From the IMG/VR virus record IMGVR_UViG_3300017987_005501: DNA of 64,000 bases, one strand, 5' to 3'. Positions 12,001-15,000 of this stretch are shown piece after piece. Origin of the DNA: a virus (taxonomy: Duplodnaviria > Caudoviricetes). Made by a program: the position numbers. The stretch's first letter is position 1, and every line of letters begins with the position of its first letter.

Positions 12001-15000
12001 CTAACGTCTGGAAACCCAGCACCCTTAAGAAGAAGGGTACTTGTTGGTTGGGTTCCGGCTGAGATCTCTATTTGCTTAATGGTTCTATCTAGCGTTAAAA
12101 TTTCTTTTTTAGAGCCCTCAATTGCCTCCGAAACAGATAGGGGGACTTCAGAATAAACATCTAAACCCACGCGTTCTAAGAGAGGATTCCCTTTAATCTT
12201 TATCTTTATAAAGAGATCCCCTGGAGGCCCTGAATTTAAGCTGTCTCCACCCTTTCCAGCAATCCGAATAACTGCACTATCAAAAACTCCGGGAGGAATG
12301 TCAACCTCAATTTCAGTTTCCACTTTTTTAACTTTAGCCCCGGAACAACCAGAACAGAGATCTTCTTTCTTAAATTTATGTCCAACCCCAGAACAAACCC
12401 GGCACGGTTGCTGAAGAGTGAAAAATCCCTGAGATTGTATTTGGACCCCTTTTCCCCCGCAATGAGTACAAATTTCTTTTTTTGCGCCGGGCTTTACCCC
12501 CGAAGCTTTGCAAGTTGGGCATTTTTGAGGCCGTTTATAAGTTATTGTTTTCTTCGTTCCGGTATATGCCTCAAAAAAATCAATTTCAAGAGACTCTATA
12601 TTTATATTAGGGCCTCTTGAAACTTGTTTTCTTCCTGAAAAAGGGTTAGACCCACCAAAGATAGATCTGAAAATGTCAAAAGGATCCCCATTGGCAACAG
12701 GACCCTGTTTTGTTGTTCCAAACTGGTCGTAGTGTTTTCTTTTTTTCGGGTTCCCTAAAACATCAAACGCCTCAGAAACTTCTTTGAATTTCTGTTCGGC
12801 GTTTGGGGCTTTTGATTTGTCCGGGTGATATTTAATTGCGAGCTTTTTATATGCTTCCTTAATTTCTTTTTCGGAAGCGTTTTTAGCTATATTTAATATC
12901 TCATAGTAGTTCTTCATTTTAAAACTACGCAAGGAGACCCCTATGTTCACGTGGGGGATGAATTGCGTCCTTTCTTTTTTCTAAGACTATTTGAGAATTC
13001 CTAGCTGAAATCCTTTTAAATTTACTAACTTTAGGAATAGGCCTTAATTTTAAATCCTTTCCATCAATGCCCATTAAAATAAAGTAACCTGAGTTGGACT
13101 TCCCTTTTATAAAATATTCAGAACCTTTATATTTGACCTTGTCAAATTTTCTAAAGCCAAATAATTTTCCTGTCGGAATCCTTTGTTGGGATCGAACCCC
13201 TTTGGTTTGTTGATAATCGCCTTGAGCTACATGTTTCTTATAAAAGACTTTATCAATATTAAAATCTATTTCTCGCCCTTCACATGCTATCACAACAGCA
13301 TCTATATAATGCTCTTTTGGTAGCCCCAATTTTTGACGGCAAGCTTTTGTGATGTATCCATATGTTATCTCTGCCTCAAAAACCTCCTTCAATAATTGAG
13401 TTTTAATCGCATTCATTTGAGAAGCATGCTTTAATTGCTTCTTCTTCCCTCTTTTCTTTAATTTAATTTCCCCAGCATGTAATTTATCATGGCAAGTTTT
13501 ACATAAGGTAATTAAATTATCTTCATGATCAGTCCCACCTTGGCTTCTAAAAATGATATGATGGACATGTAGCACTTTATCTTTTGATTTACCTTTACAA
13601 TGCTGACAGGTATAATTATCTCTATCTAAAACATATGCTTTTCGATTCTCAAATCCATAATTGATCCCTTTTTGATATAAATCCTTATTTTTTAAGACTT
13701 CTGGATTTTTCAAAGCATGAGGATCAAAAGATGCAGATTCAATAATTATTTTAGATACGGGAAGGATCGATTTAACAAAATTAATCTCTTTTAAATGACT
13801 GTTTAATTTACTAACCATTGTCGGGGATAAACGATCTTTTCTTTTTGAGTTTCTTCTATTCTTCCACCTAGCCGGTCTATATCTAGTTTTTCTAGATCTT
13901 CTATTTCTTCTATATTTTCTTCTCCGATCCATTTTCTTTTTGATATCATTTCTAATTTCAATCTCTGCGGCATAAATTACTTTGTTGTTAGAGACAACAG
14001 CAGAACCAATTTTAGAACTTCCTGGGTCGGTTCCTAAAACACAATCCTGCACATAATTTGTAGTCTTATACAACAATTTAACTGTGAATGGAGTCCTTTT
14101 GACACATTTAGCCTTGCCTTGATCCAATAGCAAACGAGCTATTGGAGGTTGGCATGGCATTAAAGGCTTTCCCTCTTCACTAACTACAAATACCATTCTT
14201 GTCCGATCTGATCTTATAAGACCTAATTATAAGATAAATGCTCACCCCAAGGGGTGGTAATGCGTAAGGTTCCTTGAAAGAACTTTCCGACTTCATCTCG
14301 ACAATGTTAAAAAGGCTTGTTATGCTTAAATCACTAGAATCGTTACCCCAAGGTTCTTGTTTAGACCTAAGCGATAGAGCTATGGTCTGATGCGGCAACC
14401 ATAGGTATCATAACCTTTTTAACGTAGATTAGGTTTTACTCCTTTCTTAGTCTGGTGAACCAAGACCCCTTAAAAACAAGTTTTTTAGTTTTTTAGAAGC
14501 CTCCACCTTTAGGCGGGGGTAGTTCACTTTCAGGACATAAGCTCTTTCGAGATAAGGTTAATTTCCGCAAAAGATTCAACCGGATCAAAAATCTCGATTC
14601 GGTTTGCTCTAGTTTCTAAAACTTCGACAGGGATAACGGAAGCATTAAAAAACGTAGCATATATTGTTTTTATTTTAATGCTGGGATTTTGGCCAAACTT
14701 TACTTTTACTTCAACGCTTAATTGGTTTCTAACTAAACCTTCTGTTTTTAACTTTTCTTCTACAAGGTTTAGGCACTCTTCTAAGTTAACTTCGCTCTTT
14801 TCCAAGCTCTCGCGTAAATATTTCTTAAATTTGTTTTGGATTTCTGTTTTAGTCTCTTCGTATTCTTTTTCGAGCTCAGCTTTCTTTTCTTCCTGTTGTT
14901 TTACATAATCAAAACCGGAAACATCTTTTTGTTTTTGCCATTGCTCTACTACTTCTTCCGAAGCAGGAACGACTTCTGATTCTGATGAGATTCCTAGAAG

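Follow-up and report, generated by a model that had tools for sequence, protein, structure and literature searches.

A probable ISGst5-type IscB transposon at the start codon of a phage dnaJ gene

A 64,000-nucleotide stretch of viral DNA (Duplodnaviria; Caudoviricetes; IMG/VR record IMGVR_UViG_3300017987_005501; hereafter the window) carries a complete non-autonomous element of the IS200/IS605 (ISC) family between a dnaJ gene and ORF193, the orphan open reading frame (ORF) upstream of it. The element occupies 1610 bp on the minus strand and contains a HEARO/omega RNA and iscB. We are highly confident that it represents an ISGst5-type insertion at the dnaJ start codon, working by the mechanism that we propose below. 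In identity and in boundaries, every defining feature of IscB/omega RNA systems and of non-autonomous ISC elements that can be read from sequence is found at this locus.

Along the minus strand, an IMPDH-like gene (15342–16379) is followed by a 65-amino-acid ORF, ORF193, the omega RNA, an 89-nt leader, iscB, and dnaJ. The ORF193 stop codon TGA (14532–14530) is succeeded by AA and then by the start of the element, GTGAAC..., at 14527. At the opposite end, iscB stops with a TAG 7 nt before the dnaJ ATG, and the seven intervening bases, TTTTAAA, lead directly to that ATG at 12917. In the plus-strand view, ...GGGGGTAGTTCAC terminates at 14527 and TTCAT lies at 12913–12917. The element sits exactly between the ORF193 stop (plus 2 nt) and the dnaJ ATG, with no target duplication, no coding sequence lost at the insertion site, and no terminal inverted repeats at its two ends (GTGAAC... 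and ...TTTTAAA). Because the iscB frame ends 7 nt before the dnaJ ATG, the coupling of an upstream stop codon to dnaJ is kept. Deletion of 12918–14527 in silico produces the junction ...TCC-TGA-AA-ATG-AAG-AAC.

A natural empty site has the same arrangement. Among 5.8 billion proteins, ORF193 has a single close homologue (P0122, 193 amino acids, 85% identical), whose 1213-bp contig, L045, reads ...ATATCT-TAA-AG-ATGAAGAAT..., that is, a stop codon, two bases, and then dnaJ. Once 12918–14527 is removed, the flanks in the window align colinearly to L045, with zero gap and zero overlap. More distant contigs without IscB (L292/L293 and L294) retain the order IMPDH, small ORFs, ORF193 homologue, dnaJ, small ORF, gyrB, and the L292 homologue of ORF193 lies at the same place (33% identity, E 1e-13). 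The dnaJ gene begins ATGAAG in L292/L293 and ATGAGT in L294; ATGA is shared by all element-free relatives. The nearest full-length DnaJ relatives are 41–43% identical and provide synteny only, and a second exact empty junction was not obtained from them. Since three relatives are element-free, insertion in the window lineage would be the simpler history.

Because the left flank ends in AAA and so does the far element end, the L045 alignment alone leaves a boundary ambiguity of 0–3 nt. On the omega RNA side, copies in multi-copy relatives (Ktedonobacter, Bacillaceae, and others) sit in differing contexts and all diverge exactly before GTGAAC, while position 1 of the HEARO model coincides with the empirical ends of relatives L058, L063, L078, and L090. 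These two criteria agree, resolving the AAA ambiguity and fixing the element at 12918–14527. Relatives terminate in GTTCAC, as does the right end (RE) in the window, where the RE hairpin is also the first HEARO stem. At the left end (LE), the plus strand forms an outer stem (12927–12932 with 12963–12968), a GGAGA loop (12933–12937) opposite ATGAA (12958–12962), and an inner hairpin (12938–12957), and this structure overlaps the last iscB codons. The coordinates are collected in Table 1.

Table 1. Features of the element and its surroundings, in window coordinates
Feature	Coordinates	Strand	Remarks
Whole element, ISC transposon with omega RNA and iscB	12918..14527	-	Plus strand reads LE (12918) to RE (14527), TnpA convention
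Predicted omega RNA guide, ~16 nt (length inferred)	14528..14543	-	Outside the element; last ORF193 codons, stop, and AA
Omega RNA scaffold (HEARO RNA)	14286..14527	-	RF02033
HEARO model end to iscB start (3' omega RNA part / iscB leader)	14197..14285	-	Position only
iscB, 423 aa, intact	12925..14196	-	Pfam RRXRR and HNH; PDB IscB matches
LE subterminal structure	12927..12968	+	Same architecture as L078; kept in about 115 relatives
RE	14496..14527	+	GAAG 14496-14499, imperfect hairpin 14500-14519, terminal TAGTTCAC 14520-14527; end motif TTCAC
Predicted target/TAM motif ATGAA (TTCAT on +), equal to the dnaJ start codon plus AA	12913..12917	-	Adjoins LE
dnaJ, 359 aa, intact	11838..12917	-	Pfam DnaJ, DnaJ_CXXCXGXG, DnaJ_C
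ORF193, orphan gene whose 3' end supplies the predicted guide	14530..15111	-	No Pfam/PHROG match

The IscB protein carries the Pfam domains RRXRR (2.7e-57, residues 2–177) and HNH (3.5e-12, residues 197–241), and PDB IscB structures match it at E 1e-39 to 1e-42. It displays an invariant PLMP motif at residues 11–14, RuvC-I, an arginine-rich bridge, HNH, and RuvC-II/III. In an alignment of 30 sequences (the window IscB and 29 homologues), D57, E153, H212/H213, H296, and D299 are invariant, and by homology these would be the RuvC/HNH catalytic residues. The HEARO/omega RNA matches RF02033 over the whole model (1–211 of 211, running from 14527 to 14286) at 132 bits (gathering score 83) and E 1.5e-28, the sole Rfam match in the window. 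It lies on the same strand as iscB and ends 89 nt before the iscB ATG, and its score is among the best measured (83–136 bits in relatives). Both iscB and its omega RNA look fully intact, and the nuclease is apparently functional. The iscB frame also traverses the whole LE hairpin structure (12925–12968, minus strand), with a tail reading ...AIHPPREHRGLLA; in relatives L134 and L141 the iscB frame likewise spans the LE structure, and in L192 it continues without a stop into the downstream ORF to give 487 amino acids.

The initial annotation had drawn an IscB element with these boundaries and had proposed that its removal leaves a stop/start junction. Its coordinates and end sequences proved exact: RF02033, the RRXRR and HNH domains, the L045 empty site, and the multi-copy ends agree on the element, and L045, with its stop, 2 nt, and ATGAAG colinear with the window flanks, agrees on the junction. 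The search that it recommended for the 17-mer of the empty junction was less fruitful, returning 42 exact matches in IMG/VR that share no flank similarity by blastn or tblastx and are chance matches. ORF193 has no relatives in IMG/VR, and INPHARED phage records contain no relatives of the locus except for a 138-nt match inside iscB in two Listeria phage fragments. The IscB-carrying sequence itself was found in sediment and seawater metagenomes of several studies. Contigs from the four low-share runs X5–X8 over 11000–16500 are short window-identical fragments only (element parts included), none of them bridging or skipping the element, and they are uninformative about empty sites in the population.

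The target motif of such elements has been described in two earlier studies. In ISGst5, the RE of the transposon delimits the omega RNA, with the guide situated in the flank beyond it; a single LE-adjoining motif, measured for GstIscB as 5'-TTCAT-3', is recognised by both TnpA and IscB, and a co-orientation bias was explained by the need for transcription of the outside guide (Meers et al. 2023, bioRxiv 10.1101/2023.03.14.532601). IscB-only ISC transposons were found inserted at N/ATGA (the slash marking the insertion point), as verified by empty sites (Kapitonov et al. 2016, PMC4810608). The plus strand of the window shows the ISGst5 arrangement, TTCAT, then LE through to RE-GTTCAC, and the corresponding minus-strand motif is ATGAA. 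ATGAA is thereby supported as the predicted target-adjacent motif (TAM) and TnpA target of this element, equal to the published TTCAT and N/ATGA. An ATGAA TAM, and the existence of ATGA-type TAMs, had been claimed beforehand; the measured GstIscB motif, the N/ATGA insertions, and the ATGR motifs of relatives with the same LE flank (below) all favour that prediction.

To relate motif to lineage, we compared 216 related loci from genomes, metagenomes, and IMG/VR, with about 130 related element ends. The far ends share an architecture of outer stem, TTCATCC, hairpin with a CTRAAG loop, 5-nt flank, outer stem, and ~6–15 nt. In 104 cases the end finishes in (T)ATAAA and the flanks diverge beyond it with no further conserved motif, so ATAAA (TTTAT on the other strand) is the target of those 104; their hairpin flank reads ..TC or ..TA in every case. 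The window has the hairpin flank TCTCC. Other ends with a ..CC flank (L188, L190, L192, and the L262–L288 group, ~27 IMG/VR loci found with their alignment), about 30 besides the window, all adjoin ATGA or, in four cases, ATGG, and none adjoins ATAAA. The ATGG loci of this ATGR clade are L276, L278, L279, and L280 (IMG/VR), where the motif is still an apparent start codon (for example MAFSFNKVF... and MAKSKNK...). At target position 4, either purine thus seems to be tolerated. In IMG/VR, IscB elements belonging to these clades are frequent, with 56 and about 28 loci.

On the strand used by TnpA, a change from A to G beside the hairpin foot goes with a change from T to C at target position 3. 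Such covariation would be expected from an IS608-type pairing between cleavage site and LE guide, in a register that we infer; the association between flank base and target position 3 is the one solid part. A maximum-likelihood tree of 47 IscB proteins sets the ATAAA clade apart from the window and the ATGR clade with 100/98 support. The ATGAA motif of the window is thus phylogenetically coherent, its IscB falling outside the ATAAA clade.

The guide is read as the 5' flank outside RE because Meers et al. (2023) place the IscB guide there. As a 16-mer, the predicted guide occurs only once in the window; at the occupied site the bases after it are GTGAA, one base off the TAM ATGAA. That single base would then be what keeps IscB from cutting the occupied site. 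The first five bases of the element (GTGAA, 14523–14527) and its target (ATGAA, 12913–12917) differ at one position; in ATAAA-type relatives the equivalent comparison gives two differences.

Several observations weigh against our interpretation. An empty-site variant of the same phage was not seen, and all of the contigs with this exact IscB (8/8) share the same context. The sole close empty site, L045, has mismatches to 6 of the 16 guide positions, one of them bordering the TAM, and with so many mismatches it is probably not a target of the current guide. The closest IscB relatives by identity (67–69%) are of the ATAAA type. Both ends fold weakly, LE at -8.2 kcal/mol against -16.1 in L078, and RE, whose hairpin is imperfect, at -2.6 against -11.5 kcal/mol in L078. 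PHROG scans of ten large or neighbouring ORFs gave no family, and the phage identity rests on gene content. With weak end hairpins and no tnpA in the window, the copy may be poorly mobilisable or no longer transposing.

The initial annotation had also suggested looking for a tnpA elsewhere in the phage. With 42 TnpA queries from relatives, no TnpA-like sequence was found in the 64-kb window (best E 0.03), which fits the non-autonomous class. About a fifth of the relatives have tnpA directly after iscB (42 TnpA-like ORFs among related loci). In many main-clade relatives (within L046–L261), a tnpA of the same orientation, with the N-terminus HLIFVxKYRK..., begins at the iscB stop or overlaps it, and the shared LE structure comes after tnpA.

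These findings bear on a rival history that we consider possible but doubtful. The element could be a fixed relic, a single insertion that TnpA can no longer move and that is inherited with the phage, its nuclease and RNA lacking any present homing role. The absence of tnpA from the window, LE and RE hairpins weaker than those of relatives, the same context in every contig with this IscB, and the lack of a second copy of either element end in the window would all suit such a relic. Against it, iscB is full-length with all catalytic residues present, and the omega RNA scores among the best of its relatives; an intact gene and a high-scoring RNA point to recent arrival or to selection on function. 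Moreover, the tnpA search spanned 64 kb, whereas the genome measures 283 kb or more.

The position of the element at a start codon recurs among its relatives. At 20 of 25 evaluable ATGR-type sites (window included), an ORF of at least 50 codons opens exactly at the flanking ATG, as a co-oriented gene. The expectation from random ATGR sites is 20% (both strands, same flanks) or 25% (same strand), giving p values of 2e-10 to 1e-8. Because the N-termini all differ, the sites are independent. In all 17 empty sites that could be rebuilt (loci with a HEARO start), an in-frame stop lies 0–60 nt upstream, an earlier in-frame ATG is present in only 2, and several have a Shine-Dalgarno box 6–10 nt before the junction. 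The upstream stops, the few earlier ATGs, and the Shine-Dalgarno boxes together establish that the flanking ATGs are real start codons, with the element often lying between the ribosome-binding site (RBS) and the ATG. Thus, the tally of related copies against start codons that had been proposed at the outset came out clearly above its 20–25% null. The dnaJ gene of the window has no Shine-Dalgarno-like box either before or after the insertion. At L263, L276, L286, L265, and L275 the element parts the RBS from its ATG, and the predicted guide there consists of RBS plus spacer.

The tally also speaks to a second rival, that the coincidence with the dnaJ start codon arose by chance in a single insertion and has no biological meaning. 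For the window considered by itself the odds are about 1 in 10, as 17 (9.5%) of its 179 ATGAA sites provide the initial ATG of an ORF 100 amino acids or longer; the 20 of 25 independent sites at co-oriented start codons, and the several elements that lie between a Shine-Dalgarno box and its ATG, make chance an improbable account. What produces the bias is a separate matter: integration preference and survival of harmless, transcribed insertions are both compatible with the data, which cannot separate them.

Least probable of all is a boundary 5 nt earlier, at 12923, with an ATAAA-like TAM (TTAAA at 12922–12918, minus strand) and the adjacent ATG incidental: the 104 (T)ATAAA ends at a similar hairpin distance (10–16 nt after the flank), the TTTAAA at roughly that place in the window, and the ATAAA-type nearest proteins would favour it, but L045 is colinear only with TTTTAAA inside the element (the spacer would otherwise be 7 nt, against 2 nt in L045), the flank TCTCC has a form seen only with ATGR targets, and the IscB tree sets the window outside the ATAAA clade.

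For the ISGst5-type insertion that we favour, we propose the following mechanism, modelled on that of the family. A Y1 transposase, TnpA, supplied in trans, would insert the single-stranded element 3' of TTCAT (ATGAA on the iscB strand). Read-through transcription from the upstream operon would then yield an omega RNA whose 5' guide comes from the end of ORF193, namely the ~16 nt that immediately precede the element. Loaded with this omega RNA, IscB would cut an empty site, in which the TAM ATGAA comes directly after the guide match, and would spare the occupied site, in which GTGAA takes that place. If the break were repaired from an occupied copy, the element could be restored or spread, and homing between co-infecting phages is plausible on this basis. 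The start-codon position would follow from the ATGA-type target; it could be shaped further if transcription has to run in the same direction as the element, if a phage genome packed with genes retains only insertions that do no harm, or if integration truly favours such sites.

A bolder and more tentative reading, which we think rather unlikely as it stands, extends to the group. ATGR-target IscB elements may be a lineage specialised on phage translation start sites, in which the TAM is the start codon and the guide is the RBS/5' untranslated region or the preceding stop region. Each would be an RNA-guided homing element between co-infecting phages, largely independent of TnpA, and the window copy, with its weak hairpins and intact IscB/omega RNA, would be an example. 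If true, specialisation on start sites would offer a safe harbour with guaranteed read-through transcription. We found no paper stating the start-codon regularity in the literature searched, which is not proof of absence, and start codons are not mentioned by Kapitonov et al. (2016, PMC4810608).

The surroundings are those of a large, phage-like genome. Genes in the window encode gyrA/gyrB, topoisomerase I, DnaB, SNF2, GroEL, CobT, DHFR, and glycosyltransferases, together with many large orphan ORFs, and contigs of up to 283 kb carry the same genes. A second set of PHROG scans recovered DHFR, dNMP kinase, methyltransferase, and glycosyltransferase only. Of the 66 ORFs of at least 100 amino acids in the window (1–64000), 54 run along the minus strand; GC skew stays negative throughout, and no tRNA occurs in the 64 kb. 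The dnaJ product has its J, Zn-finger, and C-terminal domains all present. ORF193 has neither a Pfam nor a PHROG match and is not a recognisable grpE. It lies directly upstream of phage dnaJ in all known cases (the window; L045, 373–954; L292, 1968–2483), the position that grpE occupies in bacterial operons. ORF193 could be a phage-specific partner of DnaJ.

The locus belongs to an already known transposon family, and the published target motif ATGA(A) is often a gene start. Taken alone, it changes little, being a tidy natural case of a known transposon for which the empty site is also available. It does place an apparently functional IscB/omega RNA on a huge-phage-like contig, with a guide and a TAM that can be predicted from sequence. 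The broader regularity is that, in phage contigs, roughly four in five ATGR-target IscB elements lie at start codons. This regularity offers a simple rule by which the flanks of an uncharacterised IscB predict its guide and TAM, as well as a testable idea of what lets RNA-guided nucleases persist in gene-dense viral genomes.

The closest known system is ISGst5/GstIscB, a non-autonomous IS605-family element of Geobacillus stearothermophilus. Like the window element, it has an RE-bounded HEARO/omega RNA with a guide in the outside flank and iscB downstream, no tnpA in cis, TTCAT adjoining LE, and co-orientation with the upstream gene. ISGst5 resides on a bacterial chromosome, whereas the window element is a single copy on a huge-phage-like contig and its TAM is predicted by sequence. 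The N/ATGA ISC transposons (ISC1-1_MA of Microcystis; ISC2-1_MS and ISC2-2_MS of Marinobacter; PMC4810608) are likewise short and IscB-only, with a 5'-GT... terminus, subterminal hairpins, no target duplication, and insertion directly upstream of ATGA; they were described in bacterial genomes, unlike the phage contig of the window.

Among characterised proteins and RNAs, OgeuIscB (7UTN, 7XHT, 8CSZ) shares family and domain order with the window IscB (phmmer E about 1e-41 over the RuvC/HNH core), although it is 495–496 amino acids long against 423, and the match comprises two local stretches only. The HEARO RNA family RF02033 is matched over its full length, with ~25 nt inserted where the alignment passes through the first hairpin region. 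Phage homing endonuclease genes are a functional analogy and not a matter of membership: they too are silent nuclease genes between phage genes, and the prediction for the window element is likewise that it cuts element-free alleles and is copied into them by repair in co-infection. It differs from them in that recognition would depend on a guide RNA and a 5-nt motif and not on protein, in that its primary mobility would come from a Y1 transposase, and in that homing is only predicted.

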